A stretch of DNA of 39,769 nt from an uncultured Candidatus Sumerlaeota bacterium (GCA_964526215.1 CAZGKP010000002.1:1-39769); one strand, 5' to 3'; positions 8,417-39,726 are shown, counted from the first letter of the stretch. Numbers and translations are program-made. The notes: generated by a model not told the origin, from the sequence alone.

Positions 8417-9406
8417 TTAGTCGGTTTGCCGGTCTTCCGCGAAGACCCGTCCGCCCTGGTGGCTTGGCTGTATCCAGCCCGCAAAACCGAGTTCCTCGTG
8501 CAGGCGGGCTAAAGGGCGATACTCATCCGCCTTTACCCGGCGAGAAATTTCCGGCATCTCCGGCGCCCTGTATGCCGGAAAGTATTGACTCATAAGGGCA
8601 AGATGTATCTTCGGTGAAACCTCTTTTGCTAACCAGTGAAGTGATTCTTGTGTGCCGGCGATTCCGCCCGGCAGAACCAAATGCCTTACAATCAGTCCCC
8701 GCTGCGCAACGCCTCGCTCATCGCATCGCAACACGCCAACTTGCCTGAACATCTCTTTGAGCGCCGCCCGGCTGTGTTTTACGTAATTCTCCGCACCCGA
8801 ATACTTCAGCGCCATATCATCATCGGAGTATTTAATATCCGGCAGATAAATATCGAATATGCCGTCCAGCAATCGCAAAATCTCGACGCGCTCATAGCCG
8901 CTCGTATTATAAACGAGAGGGAGGCTGAATCCGCGCGAAACGGCAAACTCAAGTGCCTGTAAAATCTGCGGCACAAAATGCGTGGGCGTAACGAAATTTA
9001 TGTTCTCACAACCGCGTCTCTGTAAATATATGAACATATCGGTAAGCTGGCTGACGCTGTATTCGTTCCCGACGCCGAGCTGGCTGATTGGATAATTCTG
9101 GCAGAAAACACAACGAAGCGTGCAATTTGTGAAGAAGATTGTCCCGGAGCCGCCTTCGCCCACAAGCGGCGGCTCTTCGCCGAAGTGTGCATTGTGGGAA
9201 GAGACAATAGGATTTGCACCGGAGCGACAGCGCCCCTTTTCCCCGGCAATACGATTCACTCTACACCGATGTGGGCAGAGCTCGCAATGCCCCAGAATAG
9301 ATGCCGCCGCCACGACTCTCCGGTGGAGTTCCCCCGAACGATACAGCGACATATATGCCGGGGCTGAAATGATATTACACTCTGTTTTTTCACTCTTCAT
9401 CTTCAC
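8417..9406 (-). CDS. Radical SAM protein, PflX-like (pyruvate formate-lyase activase-related, COG1313 type)
   Basis: CX3CX2C motif (CTLRCVFCQN) plus an N-terminal Cys cluster (CELCPHRCRVNRIAGEKGRCR). The true start is either the GTG at 9406 or the ATG at 9400. Both lie inside the left arm of the R2 repeat. Confidence 0.85.
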   Translation of the reverse strand: MKMKSEKTECNIISAPAYMSLYRSGELHRRVVAAASILGHCELCPHRCRVNRIAGEKGRCRSGANPIVSSHNAHFGEEPPLVGEGGSGTIFFTNCTLRCVFCQNYPISQLGVGNEYSVSQLTDMFIYLQRRGCENINFVTPTHFVPQILQALEFAVSRGFSLPLVYNTSGYERVEILRLLDGIFDIYLPDIKYSDDDMALKYSGAENYVKHSRAALKEMFRQVGVLRCDERGVAQRGLIVRHLVLPGGIAGTQESLHWLAKEVSPKIHLALMSQYFPAYRAPEMPEISRRVKADEYRPLARLHEELGFAGWIQPSHQGGRVFAEDRQTD

Positions 9407-9640
9407 TCTTCATCTCTGTCTTCATCTCCATTTCCGTATCTTGCTATTTCTTGCGCAATGCGCCTTCCCGACCGATTCAATAGTGCACTCGTTCTGCCGA
9501 CGATTTCGCTCAAAAGATCTTTGCCTCCTCCGAAAAGAACATAGTTGTTGCTCTCGTAAAGATGAAGATGAAGAAGGAGATGAAGTGGATGCAAGCATCC
9601 CAATCAGATGAAGATTTTATGAGGGAATATACGCGAGATT
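9391..9640. repeat. R2 element (complete): imperfect TCTTCATCT / AGATGAAGA inverted arms around a ~130-nt core
   Basis: Left arm 9391-9429 (CACTCTTCATCTTCACTCTTCATCTCTGTCTTCATCTCC). Right arm 9559-9590 (AAGATGAAGATGAAGAAGGAGATGAAGTGGATG). Flank AGATTTTATGAGGGAATATACGCGAGATTCCC is shared with the 37.7-kb copy. Confidence 0.6.
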
Positions 9641-9661
9641 CCCTATTGACTCACAGAGGAT

Positions 9662-17100: not shown

Positions 17101-18609
17101 AACTTCGGATGTGGACCGGATTCATTCCTGTTAAAGTTCTTCTCACGCGAGCTCGGCGGCAAACCATTCCTCCAGATTGAGATTGATGAACACAGCGCAG
17201 ACGCCGGCATCATCACCCGTTGCGAGGCATACCTCGATACCATTGCATCCTACAATGGCGCAACCCCACGGATACCACGTGAAGGACCAATTATGACGCT
17301 GGCATCCTTAATAAAATCTTCATCTTCATCTACGTCTTCATCTACGGAATCTTATCCTGCCAGCATCGGCCGATTGATTTCCCCAGGCGCGCCATCGGTG
17401 GGTAAACAGAATCGCGATACAACTCTATACATAACGCAGATGTGCAAGCATACATACGTCCTGGAGGCGATATTCAACCGTGCCGGTATTCCGGCACGCG
17501 TTATGGAACCATCGGATGAGGAATCGCTCTACTGGGGGCGCAAATATACCACCGGTAAGGAATGTTACCCTGCGCTACTCACCACCGGCGATATCGTGCG
17601 CGAGACACACCGTCCCGATTTTGACCCGGAACACGCAGCCTTCTTTATGCCCGGCGCAAATGGTCCCTGCCGATTCGGTCAATATGCAAAACTCCACCGC
17701 CACATCCTTGATGACCTCGGGCTGTCTTCTGTCTCCATTGTTACGCTCGACCAGGACAGGGGTTTCCATAGAGACATAAAGGGGCTTAATCTCTCCTCAG
17801 CAAAGGCTGCATGGAAAGGCATTGCCGCGGTGGATACCCTCGAGCGATACCTGCTCACCACACGTCCTTATGAAAAGAACCCCGGCGAGACCGAAGTGGT
17901 TCATAATGAGGCGCTGCGTGATCTTTACAAAACCATCCTTGAGGGCGGAAGTATTTCCGCCGAGGCGGAAAAGCAGTATCGCCTTTTTTCCCAAATCCCT
18001 ACCGAGGGGCGCGGCACACGCCCCCTTATCGGCATCGTCGGTGAGATTTATATCCGCTCAAACTCCTTCAGCAATGAGGATTTGATAAAGACACTCGAGG
18101 CGATGGGCGCCGAAGTAGCAATGCCACCAATTACTGAATGGCTTAACTACGTAACTCTTGTGCGCAGGTGGAGGAACTTGCAGCATCGCGACTACTGGAA
18201 CGCCGTCAAGGATTTCCTCATTGAAGAGTATATGCATCGTGTGGAACGGCGTATCACGCGAACCTTCAATTTTCAGCCCGAGGCATTGCCGGTAGAGCTC
18301 CTGGAACTTGCAACACCATATTTACATCCGAACTTCAGCGGAGAGGCGATCCTATCAATCGGGAAAACACTCGAACTCATCAAGGAGCGTGGTGTGGCTG
18401 GTGTAATAAACGTGATGCCCTTCACCTGTATGCCCGGCACAATCGTAGCGGCGCTCTTAAAGCGCGTGCGTGAGGATTTTGGCGGATTCCCCTGTATCTC
18501 ATTAGCCTTCACCGGACAGCAATCTCTGAACTTAAGGATGCGGCTTGAGGCATTTATGTATCAGGTGAGCGAGCGCCAAAGGCGCACCATCGGGGTGTTC
18601 CATAAATGA
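14197..18609 (+). CDS. Fusion of two BadF/BadG/BcrA/BcrD-type ATPase (activase) modules with a 2-hydroxyacyl-CoA-dehydratase-like region (DUF2229/HGD-D type)
   Basis: Two ASKHA ATPase modules (GIDVGSVSVN...CAAGTGSFLDQQA; LGVDVGSISTN...CAAGTGSFLEEQA). Cys cluster CKGCENHCEIHC. Dehydratase-like blocks (FGCGPDSFLLKF, IEIDEHSADAG, GKECYPALLTTGD, MPFTCMPGT). Confidence 0.9.
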   Translation: MSGELCIGIDVGSVSVNTFVTDPNGVLWDEGYHRTNGLPFHTALTALEEIGGRFSAQRVLYVATTGSGGRELSDLIGGLFVNEIVAQSRAVAQEIPHVRTVIEMGGEDSKLLFFKKEGGRCVLEDFSMNALCAAGTGSFLDQQAVRLGVSIEKEFGELALQCKTPPRIAGRCSVFAKTDMIHLQQVGTPVVDIVAGLCHALARNFKASIGKGKALVRPIAFQGGVAANIGMVRAFEDVLGLKPGELIKPRHFASMGALGALLIARESGEGRNFHGLDPLKAHIAKPYTSKGNLTRLADSLTQKGTPVSIVHFPQNTRTHPIDAYLGVDVGSISTNIVVIDKEHRVLAKRYLATASRPIAAIARGLDEIYGEIGDRIIIRAAGTTGSGRYLSGDIIGADVVCNEITAQAIAAIDIDPGVDTVFEIGGQDSKYISIDNGAIVDFEMNKVCAAGTGSFLEEQAKRLEIDLKSEFAPLALNAHHPVQLGDRCTVFMETDLVHHQQAGADKADLLAGLAYSTVYNYLNRVVGDKRIGRRIFFQGGTAFNKSVVSAFNKILGREVIVPPHHEVTGAIGVAINAQRRRGNRPSLFKGFDLSKRKYKLTTFECKGCENHCEIHCIKVAGEKPLFYGSRCGKYDVDRVNKKPSRLPDLFAERETLLFAVLNGEMRNIGTPANRDAEKQSASPNPQFPIPDAQHPSTSPTRPPTKGRVGIPLASIFYDQLPFWGAFFKSLGFEVEISGRTHKGTINRGIEAAVSETCFPIKVAYGHILALMDKKPDFIFLPCIVDAPMPDFTSRDKSCFNCPYIQTLPYTADAALNFAKCGTPVFSPSLFMQSGVEYMKRELGRYTEILKSDRRSINRAIDTAYRAQAAFNKALIRRGREILENLKPRQMAIVIVGRPYNTCDSGVDMGLPEKLLGMDILPIPMDMLPIDEVPLDASWRNIYWLYGLRILKAARIIRERQCLYPLYVTNFGCGPDSFLLKFFSRELGGKPFLQIEIDEHSADAGIITRCEAYLDTIASYNGATPRIPREGPIMTLASLIKSSSSSTSSSTESYPASIGRLISPGAPSVGKQNRDTTLYITQMCKHTYVLEAIFNRAGIPARVMEPSDEESLYWGRKYTTGKECYPALLTTGDIVRETHRPDFDPEHAAFFMPGANGPCRFGQYAKLHRHILDDLGLSSVSIVTLDQDRGFHRDIKGLNLSSAKAAWKGIAAVDTLERYLLTTRPYEKNPGETEVVHNEALRDLYKTILEGGSISAEAEKQYRLFSQIPTEGRGTRPLIGIVGEIYIRSNSFSNEDLIKTLEAMGAEVAMPPITEWLNYVTLVRRWRNLQHRDYWNAVKDFLIEEYMHRVERRITRTFNFQPEALPVELLELATPYLHPNFSGEAILSIGKTLELIKERGVAGVINVMPFTCMPGTIVAALLKRVREDFGGFPCISLAFTGQQSLNLRMRLEAFMYQVSERQRRTIGVFHK
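16245..16270 (+). repeat. Tentative R4-like segment inside the 1470-aa CDS
   Basis: CTAATCCTCAATTTCCAATTCCTGATG against the R4 copy at 18652 (CTCAATTCACTATTCCTCATTCA): about 17/24 matches. It sits within a low-complexity insert (SASPNPQFPIPDAQHPSTSPTRPPTKG). Confidence 0.3.
17305..17403 (+). repeat. R2-arm plus R3 sequence embedded in frame in the 1470-aa CDS
   Basis: TCCTTAATAAAATCTTCATCTTCATCTACGTCTTCATCT parallels the reverse complement of 37709-37745 (CCCTTATGAAATCTTCATCTTCGTCTTCATCT). AGGCGCGCCATCGGTGGG (17386-17403) is 18/18 identical to the R3 variant at 37548-37565 (reverse complement). Confidence 0.55.
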
Positions 18610-22908: not shown

Positions 22909-22986
22909 CCCACGCAGAGGCGCAGAGGTCGCAGAGAAAGAGAAATGTTTTATATTAACTCTGCGTTCTCTGTGTCTCTGCGTGGG
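22909..22986. repeat. Solitary long hairpin with (CGCAGAG)n-type arms
   Basis: CCCACGCAGAGGCGCAGAGGTCGCAGAG (22909-22936) against the reverse complement of 22959-22986, CCCACGCAGAGACACAGAGAACGCAGAG: 24/28 complementary. The loop is 22 nt and AT-rich. No ORF. Confidence 0.6.
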
Positions 22987-32636: not shown

Positions 32637-32730
32637 ATCACCCAGAGCACGTATTCATTTTTTTGATACATTTCAAATACCCTGCTCCCGGTATGAGGTC
32701 AATCTAAATAACTCGTCATACGTTGTGTGC

Positions 32731-32790
32731 ATCTTCCCTTCACTCTTCATCTTCATCTCCATCTATGTATCTTGCTGTTTCCCCCGCTGC
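32731..32790 (+). repeat. R2 solo left end
   Basis: ATCTTCCCTTCACTCTTCATCTTCATCTCCATCTATGTATCTTGCTGTTTCCCCCGC parallels 9391-9455 and 37597-37650 (shared ..TCTTCATCTCCAT..GTATCTTGCT(A/G)TTTC..). No clear right arm nearby. Confidence 0.5.
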
Positions 32791-36625: not shown

Positions 36626-36684
36626 ACGGGCATTATGATTTGCCACGGCAACTTTGCCGGAAATCTATGAAAATGGTTTTTAAC

Positions 36685-36711
36685 CCGCGGGAGAGGTTCT
36701 GGCTCCCGCGG
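36685..36711. terminator. Hairpin between the convergent kinase and rnc genes
   Basis: CCGCGGGAG-AGGTTCTGG-CTCCCGCGG, a 9-bp GC-rich stem. A second hairpin, CGCCGC-CGAGAT-GCGGCG, lies at 36727-36744. No clear U-tracts. Confidence 0.35.
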
Positions 36712-36791
36712 AGTTCACAAAGCTTGCGCCGCCGAGATGCGGCGGGCACAGAGATATTTTCTTCCCTGTGGTAATAAATTTTCCGGGTAGC

Positions 36792-36814
36792 GCCGAAGGC
36801 GCACCATCGGTGGG
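36792..36814 (+). repeat. R3 23-mer, copy 1 (7 nt downstream of the rnc stop)
   Basis: GCCGAAGGCGCACCATCGGTGGG. Identical to 39034-39056. 22/23 to the reverse complement of 37548-37570. Confidence 0.8.
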
Positions 36815-36821
36815 CAGAATA

Positions 36822-37535
36822 TTAGTGGTAGGGGTATTCGAGGGCGATGCGGGCGGCATCGTTCTCGGCTTCCTTCTTGCGGGAGCCATAACCTTTCCCG
36901 AAGGGCTTTCCCTGAATGGTAACCTCGATGCAGAAACTCTTCTTATGGTCAGGTCCGCTCTGGCTTATGAGTCGGTATTCGGGGACACACTGGAAGTTTT
37001 TCTGTGCATATTCCTGCAGGCGCGATTTGTAGTCGGCGAATATGTCGGACTGAAGGAGTTCCTCGGCGGGTTTGATGAGTTTCTCTTTGACAAAGTGGGA
37101 AACATCCTCGAGGGGGGCAGAGAGATAAAACGCCCCGATGAGGGACTCGAGGGCGCAACCCAGAAGGGTGGAACGCCGCCTGCCACCGCTTATTTCTTCT
37201 CCTTTGCCTAAAAGCAATAGATTGCCGATTCCGAGCCGCGTCGCCTGTCGCCCAAGCATCGAACGGCTCACAATCCGTGCCTTTCGCTTTGAAAGCCTGC
37301 CTTCATCTGCATCTGGGTATTTATCATAAAGGTAACGGGAGACCAGGAATCCAAGGACAGCATCTCCCAGAAATTCGAGGCGCTCATTATCTCCGGGTAG
37401 ACCCTTCTCGAATGCATACGAACTGTGCGTGAGGGCGAGGTTCACCCGTTTTAGGTCTGCACTCTGAAGGTTAAGGGATTTCAGGAATGCCTTCAGTGCT
37501 TTTTTTCGGGGAGAGTCTATATAGTCATCCGTCAT
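36822..37535 (-). CDS. rnc: Ribonuclease III
   Basis: Signature NERLEFLGDAVLG. C-terminal dsRBD (DYKSRLQEYAQK..PEYRLISQSGPDHKKSF..GSRKKEAENDAARIAL). Confidence 0.92.
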   Translation of the reverse strand: MTDDYIDSPRKKALKAFLKSLNLQSADLKRVNLALTHSSYAFEKGLPGDNERLEFLGDAVLGFLVSRYLYDKYPDADEGRLSKRKARIVSRSMLGRQATRLGIGNLLLLGKGEEISGGRRRSTLLGCALESLIGAFYLSAPLEDVSHFVKEKLIKPAEELLQSDIFADYKSRLQEYAQKNFQCVPEYRLISQSGPDHKKSFCIEVTIQGKPFGKGYGSRKKEAENDAARIALEYPYH

Positions 37536-37547
37536 ATCTATATAAAA

Positions 37548-37570
37548 CCCACCGATGGCGCGCCTTCGGC
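37548..37570 (-). repeat. R3 23-mer, copy 2, inverted (12 nt upstream of the rnc ATG)
   Basis: Plus strand CCCACCGATGGCGCGCCTTCGGC. The reverse complement GCCGAAGGCGCGCCATCGGTGGG differs from copies 1 and 3 at one base (G for A). Confidence 0.8.
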
Positions 37571-37596
37571 GTCATAAGTTGTGCTGCATATCTTCA

Positions 37597-37765
37597 CCTT
37601 ATACTCTTCATCTCCATCTTCATCTCCGCATCTTGCTATTTCCTCCGCCACACGCGTTTCTAACCGCCTCAATAAGGGCATCCCGCCAGGGGCGCGCCCG
37701 TAATAGCTAAGATGAAGACGAAGATGAAGATTTCATAAGGGAACACACGCGTGAGTCCCATTTTT
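37597..37765. repeat. R2 element (complete) in the fabF-rnc spacer
   Basis: Left arm CCTTATACTCTTCATCTCCATCTTCATCTCC (37597-37627). Right arm AAGATGAAGACGAAGATGAAGATTTCATAAGG (37709-37740). The core contains an R3-like CCCGCCAGGGGCGCGCCCG (37682-37700). Flank GGGAACACACGCGTGAGTCCC parallels 9624-9644. Confidence 0.6.
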
Positions 37766-37774
37766 TTGCCTCGC

Positions 37775-39016
37775 TTATTCCCATCGTCGCATAACGATTA
37801 CGGCATTATGCCCTCCAAAGCCCAGTGAGTTGGAGATGGCGATATTGACCGGGGCTGTGCGCGCTGTGTTGGGGACGTAATCGAGGTCGCAATCGGGGTC
37901 GGGGTTTTCATAATTTATGGTCGGGGGGATTTTGCCCTCGTGAATGGTCAGGGCGGTTGCTACTGCCTCTGCGGCGCCGGCTGCACCGAGCATATGCCCT
38001 ATCATCGATTTGTTGGAGCTAATGGCTAATTTGTATGCATGCTCGCCAAATACAGTCTTTATTGCCTGAGTTTCGGTTTTGTCATTAAGCGGGGTGGATG
38101 TTCCATGTGCATTGATATAGTCAACGGCAGAAGGAGGAATGCCGGCATCGTTCAGTGCGGCACGCATAGCCCTTGCGGCGCCCTCGCCTTCCGGGGGAGG
38201 TGCGGTCAGGTGATAGGCATCACCGCTGAATCCATAACCGACGATTTCGCAATAGATTTTCGCTCCGCGGCTCTTTGCGTGCTCGAGTTCCTCCAGCACG
38301 AGGATGCCTGCACCTTCTGCCAGAAGGAAGCCGTCCCGCTCTTTATCGAAGGGTCTGCTGGCTTTTTCAGGTGCATCGTTACGGCGAGTGATGGCATGCA
38401 TATTGTCGAAACCGGCGAGTCCAAGCGGTGTGATAGCCGCCTCTGCACCGCCCGTAATCATATAGATGGCGTCGCCGCGCTGGATGGTCCTAAACGCATC
38501 CCCGGTGGCATTTGTTCCCGATGCACAGGCTGTTACAACGCAGGAATTTGGTCCCTTCAGCCCCAGGTCTATGGCGACCATCGCTGACGCCATATTGGGG
38601 ATTATCTTTGGTATGAGGAATGGCGTTACGCGACGGGGACCCTTGTTCACAAGAATCTGATTCTGTTTTTCGATTAAGCCTATCCCGCCAATCCCGACGC
38701 CGATGATGACACCGAACCGGTCGCTATTGATACTATCTTTAGAGAAACCGGCATCAGAGAACGCCTCCCGCGCCGCCACTATCGCAAACTGGCAGAATTG
38801 CTCGGTCTTTCTTACTACCTTTCTGTCGAGGTGCTCCTCGGGTTTGAACCTCTTTACCTCTGCGGCAATCCTGGAGTTATTGTTCGAGGTATCGAAGTAT
38901 GTAATGGGACCCGCCCCACTCTTCCCCGAGACAAGGGCGTCCCAAAATGTCCTTGTATCATTTCCGATTGGGGTAATTACTCCAAGACCCGTAACAACTA
39001 CGCGCTTTTTTTCCAT
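37775..39016 (-). CDS. fabF: Beta-ketoacyl-ACP synthase II
   Basis: [16 protein letters not shown], active-site [14 protein letters not shown] and GHMLGAAG motifs. Start at ATG 39016 (MEKKRVVV). The track extension to 39049 runs into the R3 repeat. Confidence 0.92.
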
Positions 39017-39033
39017 ACGAACCTCTAATTGAT

Positions 39034-39057
39034 GCCGAAGGCGCACCATCGGTGGGG
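39034..39057 (+). repeat. R3 23-mer, copy 3 (18 nt upstream of the fabF ATG)
   Basis: GCCGAAGGCGCACCATCGGTGGGG, identical to copy 1 over 23 nt. Confidence 0.8.
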
Positions 39058-39161
39058 TGTAACCGTCCTAATCCTTCATAATTTCACTACAAAGCGCACG
39101 GAGAACATAGAGAACTCCGGGATTTGCAGAATCCCCGTGGCGAAGGATTAAGACATAATCG

Positions 39162-39193
39162 AAAAAGTGGGTAAAATGCCCGCCCGGGTGGGC
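39162..39193 (-). terminator. Possible attenuating terminator after acpP
   Basis: The minus-strand RNA reads GCCCACCCGGGCGGGC (GC hairpin with one mismatch) followed by AUUUUACCCACUUUUU. Confidence 0.35.
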
Positions 39194-39208
39194 GACCCTC
39201 TTGCTCAT

Positions 39209-39231
39209 CCCACCAGGGGCGCGCCTGCGGC
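39209..39231 (-). repeat. R3 variant (AGG/CCT subtype) in the acpP-fabF spacer
   Basis: Plus strand CCCACCAGGGGCGCGCCTGCGGC. 19/23 identical to 37548-37570, and the same subtype as 37682-37700. Confidence 0.6.
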
Positions 39232-39247
39232 TTGAAAGAGTAGGATT

Positions 39248-39496
39248 TTATCCCTCTTGTGCAGGGACCTTTTCCTCAATAAATTTTATTGCCTCGCCGA
39301 CAGTGGAGATTTTCTCTGCCTCTTCATCCGGTATATCAATGCCGAATTTCTCCTCGAACTCCATAACAAGCTCCACGATGTCCAGCGAGTCTGCACCAAG
39401 GTCTTCTATAAAGGATGCATCATCGGTCAGTTCCTCTGGATTCACCCCGAGCTGTTCAACAATAATCTGTTTCACCTTTTCCCTTACGTCTGTCAT
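39248..39496 (-). CDS. acpP: Acyl carrier protein
   Basis: 82 aa. Phosphopantetheine attachment motif [28 protein letters not shown] upstream. Confidence 0.92.
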
Positions 39497-39667
39497 TCAA
39501 CGCTACCTCCTCAAAAAATTTTCTCCCGCGGGTTTATTTACGGAAAGATAAAATCTTTTGTCTAATAGTTCTAACACTTTCCCGATTTCAAGCAAAAAAG
39601 TGTGCAGGCAGACGGCTTCAGCAGACTAAAGTCTTCCGGGGGCATTGCCCCCACCAGGCTTTCTTCT

Positions 39668-39726
39668 CTCCAAAAAGGATGAAAATGTTATGATTACGAT
39701 TACAATTATGATTATAACCGGAATAC
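39668..39726 (-). repeat. R1 copy D (inverted; same box, different arm)
   Basis: The reverse complement reads GTATTCCGGTTATAATCATAATTGTAATCGTAATCATAACATTTTCATCCTTTTTGGAG. The AACATTTT(T)CATCCTTTT(T)GGAG box is shared with R1 A and B. The arm is an (ATAATC/GTAATC)-type tract instead of TGTCCGTTGTC. Confidence 0.4.

Follow-up and report, generated by a model that had tools for sequence, protein, structure and literature searches.

A probable REP/MITE-like repeat family and the inverted repeat around the RNase III gene of a Candidatus Sumerlaeota bacterium

The RNase III gene (rnc) of an uncultured Candidatus Sumerlaeota bacterium lies between two inverted copies of a 23-nt sequence, in a stretch of 39,769 nucleotides that was analyzed as a whole and is called the window here. 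These copies are probably members of a lineage-specific family of REP/MITE-like repeats, with the bracket around rnc a by-product of the spread of that family. A preliminary description of the locus had read the bracket as a dedicated autoregulatory or processing module in which the message of RNase III is packaged as a substrate of the enzyme. Our analysis leaves that proposal unsupported, since the arms are generic repeats, similar brackets surround other genes, and the bracket is absent at seven orthologous loci.

The history that we favor has three parts. A short repeat family resembling REP/REPIN elements would have colonized the intergenic DNA of a Sumerlaeota-like lineage, one copy (B, below) would have arrived as the end of a MITE-like composite element of about 240 nt inserted between fabF and rnc, and two further copies, A before fabF and C after rnc, would be solo units. 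Because the repeats are dispersed and copy B was apparently brought in by an insertion, the bracket would be a by-product of these events rather than a conserved device for RNase III.

Copies of the repeat in the acpP-fabF-rnc cluster

The features of the window discussed below are as follows, with coordinates counted from its first nucleotide.

18575–18597, plus strand: degenerate fourth copy of the 23-mer (3 mismatches), at the extreme 3' end of a BcrAD/DUF2229 activase open reading frame
36791–36814, plus strand: copy C, which forms the 3' arm of the bracket and lies between rnc and the histidine-kinase gene convergent with it
36822–37535, minus strand: rnc (RNase III, 237 aa), supported by Pfam matches and the start codon of relatives
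37536–37774, minus strand: composite dispersed element of 239 nt in the fabF-rnc spacer, ending in copy B and TTTTATATA
37548–37571, minus strand: copy B, the 5' arm of the rnc bracket and terminal module of the composite repeat in the fabF-rnc spacer
37605–37730, minus strand: inner inverted arms of the spacer (37605–37625 and 37710–37730), 21 nt, 90% complementary, 84 nt apart
37775–39016, minus strand: fabF (beta-ketoacyl-ACP synthase II, 413 aa), of the length found in relatives and with AGAGG before ATG 39016
39034–39056, plus strand: copy A, identical to C and situated 17 nt 5' of the true fabF start (ATG 39016)
39209–39231, minus strand: member of a second repeat family, related to the 23-mer (GCCGCAGGCGCGCCCCTGGTGGG), just past the acpP stop
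39248–39496, minus strand: acpP (acyl carrier protein), which opens the conserved acpP-fabF-rnc cluster

The inverted arms described around rnc were confirmed at 36791–36814 and 37548–37571, where they are 24 nt long, 96% complementary (23/24) and spaced 733 nt apart; the plus strand reads GCCGAAGGCGCACCATCGGTGGG at 36792–36814 and CCCACCGATGGCGCGCCTTCGGC at 37548–37570. They enclose exactly the rnc open reading frame, standing 12 nt 5' of its AUG and 7 nt 3' of its UAA, and the minus-strand product is RNase III, all as first described (Pfam Ribonucleas_3_3, 2.8e-31; dsrm, 6.8e-17; Ribonuclease_3, 1e-21). The rnc start codon aligns with that of six relatives. With up to three mismatches allowed, the window contains four copies of the 23-mer, against 0.00 expected from dinucleotide shuffles. 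The inverted repeat at rnc is real and beyond chance.

The 23-mer has the consensus GCCGAAGGCGCGCCATCGGTGGG and a near-palindromic core; the 18-nt core CCGAAGGCGCGCCATCGG is self-complementary at 16 of 18 positions, so that each copy could form a local hairpin and copies in the same orientation could pair in part. Copy A and the degenerate copy at 18575–18597, which lies between convergent genes, had gone unmentioned in the preliminary description. Read in the direction of transcription, the minus strand carries in turn acpP, copy A, fabF, the 239-nt spacer ending in copy B, rnc and copy C, which places three copies in alternating orientation at the junctions of the cluster. As RNA, copies A and C read CCCACC...CUUCGGC and copy B reads GCCGAAGG...GGUGGG, complementary to both. 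Since A is complementary to B, these two bracket fabF plus the spacer; in a repeat search, they form the longest inverted repeat of the window (32 nt, 88%).

Copy A also bears on the annotation of fabF. A longer open reading frame begins at 39049 with an ATG (39047–39049) that falls within the repeat, and automatic gene prediction from this codon could lengthen the protein by 11 spurious residues at its N terminus. We place the start at 39016, on which the relatives and the AGAGG Shine-Dalgarno sequence agree.

A second repeat family, GCCGCAGGCGCGCCCCTGG(T/C)GGG, shares the GGCGCGCC center and the GGTGGG tail with the 23-mer and differs in its flanking half-sites. It occurs in the window at 39209–39231 and, in a shorter version within the spacer, at 37683–37699, as well as in three metagenome contigs (L003 827–851, L005 316–344 and L012 363–389). 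We also considered GGCGCGCC as a HIP1-like over-represented octamer and found the case unconvincing (4 occurrences against 1.1 expected, with 6 of 100 shuffles reaching 4).

Dispersal of the 23-mer in metagenome contigs

JGI metagenome contigs were scanned with the pattern GCCGAAGGCGCNCCATCGGTGG. The exact core was found in 37 contigs, 35 of them from the related samples Ga0315543 (most), Ga0315547 and Ga0315549; the contigs of these three samples carry more than 40 copies of the 23-mer, one to three per contig. All copy counts here come from contigs chosen by an exact pattern match, most of them short, so the invariance of the core is circular and it is the boundaries of the unit that are informative. 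One contig from Ga0315549 (L009) is 100% identical to window positions 38666–39709, which places the organism of the window in the same sample series. This 1-kb contig (Ga0315549_1139386) was the sole return of an acpP look-up, so copies B and C are known together from one assembly; an exact match to the RNase III protein was not found in public assemblies.

An alignment of 43 copies (up to one mismatch), drawn from the window plus 33 metagenome contigs, shows a unit sharply bounded at 23 nt. Its flanks are unconserved, their consensus consisting of a weak A at −2 only and lacking the 5' GTAG tetranucleotide that stands beside the palindrome in REP elements, and the asymmetric 3' GGTGGG tail is conserved with the palindrome. 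When genes were approximated simply by long ORFs, almost every copy fell in an intergenic region, usually about 10–130 nt from a gene end and in either orientation, next to genes as unrelated as His_biosynth, a GH5 cellulase, a HAD hydrolase and a DUF11 protein. Adjacent copies (up to four mismatches) form 10 direct and 7 inverted pairs, without an excess of inverted ones. The preliminary description had itself noted that its claim would fall if the 23-mer were a generic dispersed repeat with no orientation bias; a dispersed repeat without such bias is what we found, and specificity for rnc is not upheld.

Inverted copies enclose other genes as well. The open reading frames examined between such copies are, besides fabF and rnc, an XPB/ERCC3-like helicase gene (contig L024), with one copy 18 nt 5' of its start and the other 68 nt 3' of its stop, and a DnaJ-TPR gene (contig L016). 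Tighter arrangements also occur: a REPIN-like inverted doublet forming a 27-bp hairpin (L037 283–356) and partial tandem duplications of the form GCCGAAG-GCCGAAGG...GGTGG-GCGCGCCATCGGTGGG (L012 ~690–740, L023 ~199–250 and L024 ~765–815). As an imperfect, hairpin-forming palindrome with many dispersed, mostly extragenic copies in both orientations, the 23-mer behaves like repeats of the REP/REPIN/BIME type.

Matches from outside this sample series were few. A scan of GTDB representative genomes returned one exact 23-mer, in an unrelated context of an Anaerolineaceae MAG (L001 7469–7491; JANTHQ010000024.1), which we take as chance because about 0.3 matches were expected (21 specified bases, 1.2e12 positions). 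A T variant in contig L036 (Ga0302120) was likewise treated as chance. Rfam searches at the 23-mer sites, at gathering and permissive thresholds, returned only chance-level miRNA models on hairpins.

A different 20-nt inverted repeat of the window, ATTGTCTGTTGTCCGTTGTT at 2495–2514 and AACAACGGACAACTGACAAT at 2920–2939 (95% complementary), is built of ACGGACA/ACTGACA heptamer-like units and brackets a 127-aa open reading frame (2538–2921), so the bracketing of genes by repeats is not unique to the 23-mer; similar runs occur in contigs L008 and L013. At 22909–22986 lies a 28-bp hairpin (86% complementary, 22-nt loop) of CTCTGCG/CGCAGAG-type heptamers, whose only Rfam match was a chance-level plant miRNA model. 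Runs of this type adjoin 23-mer copies in contigs L010 and L018.

The palindrome could also act at the level of DNA. E. coli REP elements are bound by gyrase, IHF and Pol I and are recognized by RAYT transposases. By comparison with them, the 18-nt core centered on GGCGCGCC, palindromic at 16 of 18 positions, might be the site of a dimeric DNA-binding protein, such as a nucleoid-associated or gyrase-like factor, a RAYT-type transposase or a regulator, in which case RNA pairing would be irrelevant. This reading names no candidate protein and sits poorly with the conservation of the asymmetric GGTGGG tail together with the palindrome, and sites after stops and between convergent genes are ill-suited to a transcription-factor operator. 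We consider it quite improbable.

The composite element and the rnc loci of relatives

The closest RNase III proteins are 63–69% identical to that of the window, and the few that are named belong to Candidatus Sumerlaeota. The gene order is shared: fabF lies directly upstream of rnc in all seven relatives, and acpP is present in all six whose contig extends that far. The gap between fabF and rnc runs from −4 (an overlap) to 56 nt in six of the seven and is 145 nt in the other, and from these short gaps we infer that the spacer of the window is an insertion.

Neither the 23-mer nor an equivalent of the bracket was seen in these relatives. The 23-mer is absent at all seven rnc loci (with up to four mismatches allowed in the four loci tested in this way), and in none of the seven do the two ends of rnc carry an inverted repeat. 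When pairing was measured between the 120 nt 5' of the rnc start and the 120 nt 3' of the stop, the longest contiguous helix in the seven relatives was 6–13 bp, with energies within the range of shuffles; the same flanks in the window give a 25-bp helix with an energy about 7 standard deviations beyond shuffles. Conservation with the gene, by which an rncO-type operator would be recognized, is therefore lacking at the seven orthologous loci. Among relatives at 63–69% protein identity, the bracket is not conserved.

Synteny with five of the seven relatives stops at copy C (window 36626–36821 compared with L039, L042, L044, L049 and L050). Downstream of rnc, five of the seven carry BMC-domain, PMT_2 and SAM_HAT genes, which in the window are replaced by a convergent gene for a 1232-aa PAS histidine kinase. 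The end of synteny at copy C points to a rearrangement whose breakpoint is at the repeat; an artificial join in the assembly is another possibility.

The inserted spacer belongs to a larger, composite family of elements, about 200–240 nt long and non-coding, in which GAAGAT-rich inverted arms flank a variable core. Copy B and the roughly 120 nt upstream of it are 79–89% identical to elements in seven contigs (L005, L013, L015, L022, L026, L028 and L030), in matches 92–130 nt long with E-values down to 1e-34, and in seven contigs the 23-mer is preceded by a shared module of about 45–120 nt (...GGAGATGAAGATGAAGAGTGAAGAAGATATGCACACAACTTATGAC) and followed by TTGTATATA, a context that copy B shares. 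Parts of the element recur within the window at 9386–9644 and 32714–32782. The inner arms at 37605–37625 and 37710–37730 form a long local stem in the rnc leader, and the spacer RNA is predicted to fold into a long hairpin (−89.6 kcal/mol, z-score −4.2).

A non-coding, multi-copy sequence with inverted arms and at least seven related copies elsewhere agrees with the definition of a MITE. The element is a mosaic, some copies lacking the left arm and other short repeats being nested inside; at the spacer its borders are mosaic too, and no target-site duplication is clearly readable there. Copies of the composite element have a MITE-like look and are intergenic, beside unrelated genes.

Predicted RNA pairing and comparison with known systems

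A transcript with two opposite copies of the 23-mer would be expected to form a GC-rich duplex of about 25 bp. For an RNA covering rnc only (36780–37600), RNAfold places the stem enclosing the open reading frame in both the minimum-energy and the centroid structures, as the preliminary description had anticipated. The predicted B-C stem has 25 bp (23 Watson-Crick and 2 G-U pairs), which in the model is long enough for an RNase III substrate, and it buries the only Shine-Dalgarno-like sequence, GGUGGG, another point on which the early account holds. The predicted duplex energy of B-C is −58.3 kcal/mol and that of A-B −56.9 kcal/mol, compared with −7 to −11 kcal/mol for the local hairpins; copies in the same orientation are predicted to pair at −30 to −42 kcal/mol. 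The potential of rnc transcripts for duplex formation is thus real as far as it is supported in silico.

The fold differs when the whole operon is considered. In the minimum-energy structure of the RNA spanning 36700–39600, A pairs with B and C forms a local hairpin. A and B are transcribed ahead of C, and in an operon transcript the A-B pairing around fabF would probably form first and compete with the B-C pairing around rnc. A crude scan for sigma-70-like promoters, whose rules may differ in this phylum, found none on the minus strand between fabF and B, and a terminator scan gave only a weak candidate, overlapping copy C. We also discarded the idea that TATATA after the 23-mer is a −10 box for leaderless mRNAs: its distance of about 3 nt to the ATG is unsuited to such a box, and some of the ATGs downstream of other copies do not begin a gene.

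These predictions bear on the proposal of a working autoregulatory module in the B-C pair, perhaps recruited from repeats, in which excess RNase III would cleave the 25-bp stem, or the stem would block the ribosome-binding site, and less RNase III would be made. The stem, at a predicted −58 kcal/mol in both structures of the rnc-only RNA, and the Shine-Dalgarno-like sequence within it are consistent with such a role. A precedent exists in E. coli, whose RNase III autoregulates by cutting a structure in its own 5' UTR (PMC5371410, citing Bardwell 1989 and Matsunaga 1996). A difficulty for the by-product reading lies here as well. That rnc itself should be among the bracketed genes is a striking coincidence: at an assumed density of one copy in roughly 10 kb, a given gene would have, by a rough estimate, a prior chance below about 1% of lying between inverted copies, and the precise placement of the modeled stem and its cover of the Shine-Dalgarno-like sequence resemble a translational or processing switch.

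We nevertheless regard a functional module as unlikely. Its arms are dispersed repeats that bracket other genes in the same manner, the arrangement is missing at all seven orthologous loci, and arm B appears to have been brought by a mobile composite element. The promoter scan between fabF and B came back empty for a start that would give an rnc-only transcript, and copy A, transcribed earlier, competes for B and wins in the operon fold, which further weakens the idea of a dedicated device. If the bracket is a by-product, as we favor, a feedback effect on rnc, should one exist, would be incidental or a matter of recent co-option.

The 23-mers might instead be RNase III processing signals throughout the genome. 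Opposite copies, or partly paired copies of one orientation, would pair around cistrons, and RNase III would divide polycistronic RNAs gene by gene, much as it processes rRNA precursors. The acpP, fabF and rnc genes would then form one processed operon, and the presence of rnc within it would couple the supply of enzyme to demand. Copies do lie near start and stop codons at gene junctions, inverted copies surround four single genes (rnc, fabF, the helicase gene and the DnaJ-TPR gene), the predicted pairing extends to same-orientation copies, and MITE hairpins in Neisseria mRNAs are known targets of RNase III (PMC2649163). Yet inverted pairs show no excess, many copies are solo on their contig, some lie between convergent genes, where a common transcript is not expected, and a selfish repeat confined to intergenic DNA predicts the same pattern equally well. 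This makes genome-wide punctuation very improbable in our judgment, and slimmer still is the chance that a selfish 23-nt family has been co-opted as genome-wide RNase III signals that cut operons at gene junctions. Were this last idea true, the choice between A-B and B-C pairing, together with the level of the enzyme itself, would set RNase III output.

Taken plainly, the by-product reading would add one more lineage-specific REP/MITE-like family, and it would carry the caution that the spread of repeats alone can produce a perfect inverted repeat around a suggestive gene. The lineage would also offer a natural test case, in which many mRNAs, including that of the dsRNA nuclease itself, are predicted to be able to form perfect duplexes of 23–25 bp. 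By analogy with the hairpins of Neisseria Correia elements, RNase III can probably cut the duplexes formed by these repeats; if it does, post-transcriptional control driven by repeats of the Correia type would extend to another phylum and to long-range pairing. Copies left unpaired would fold into small hairpins and may serve as 3' stabilizers of the REP type.

Among known systems, the REP, REPIN and BIME sequences of E. coli, Pseudomonas and other bacteria share general traits with the 23-mer: a short (20–40 nt), GC-rich, imperfect palindrome that forms hairpins in mRNA, extragenic and often just past stops, in many copies and both orientations. The tight inverted doublet in L037 and the clusters with partial duplications in L012, L023 and L024 are further points of likeness. 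The 23-mer differs in its host, a Sumerlaeota-like lineage, in lacking the conserved 5' GTAG and having the asymmetric GGTGGG tail, and in that its widely spaced inverted copies give perfect duplexes of 23–25 bp.

The Correia elements of Neisseria, which are MITEs, give mRNA hairpins that RNase III binds or cleaves, and the expression of adjacent genes changes as a result (PMC2649163). Like these CREE/nemis elements, the spacer element is multi-copy and non-coding, has inverted arms that form a long hairpin, and lies directly 5' of genes. It has no sequence similarity to them, however: where Correia elements have 26-nt repeats, its arms consist of GAAGAT-type simple repeats, and it is a mosaic in which the left arm is sometimes absent and short repeats are nested.

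The E. coli rncO operator (PMC5371410) resembles the present case in that RNase III could cut dsRNA beside the start codon of its own gene, giving negative feedback. The operator consists of local stem-loops in the 5' UTR, whereas the pairing considered here brings together the 5' and 3' flanks of the gene across 733 nt, and the bracket is built of dispersed repeats that are not conserved in seven relatives. The precursor stems of 16S and 23S rRNA offer a parallel in long-range pairing of flanks, with a duplex of about 20 bp or more for RNase III, but they are conserved, operon-specific and placed around an untranslated RNA. The rnc stem, in contrast, encloses a translated open reading frame and is made of a generic repeat with a competing partner upstream of fabF. 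By analogy, then, the arrangement at rnc would work most like the Correia elements, as a source of repeat-derived dsRNA, and it is distributed most like REP/REPIN sequences.
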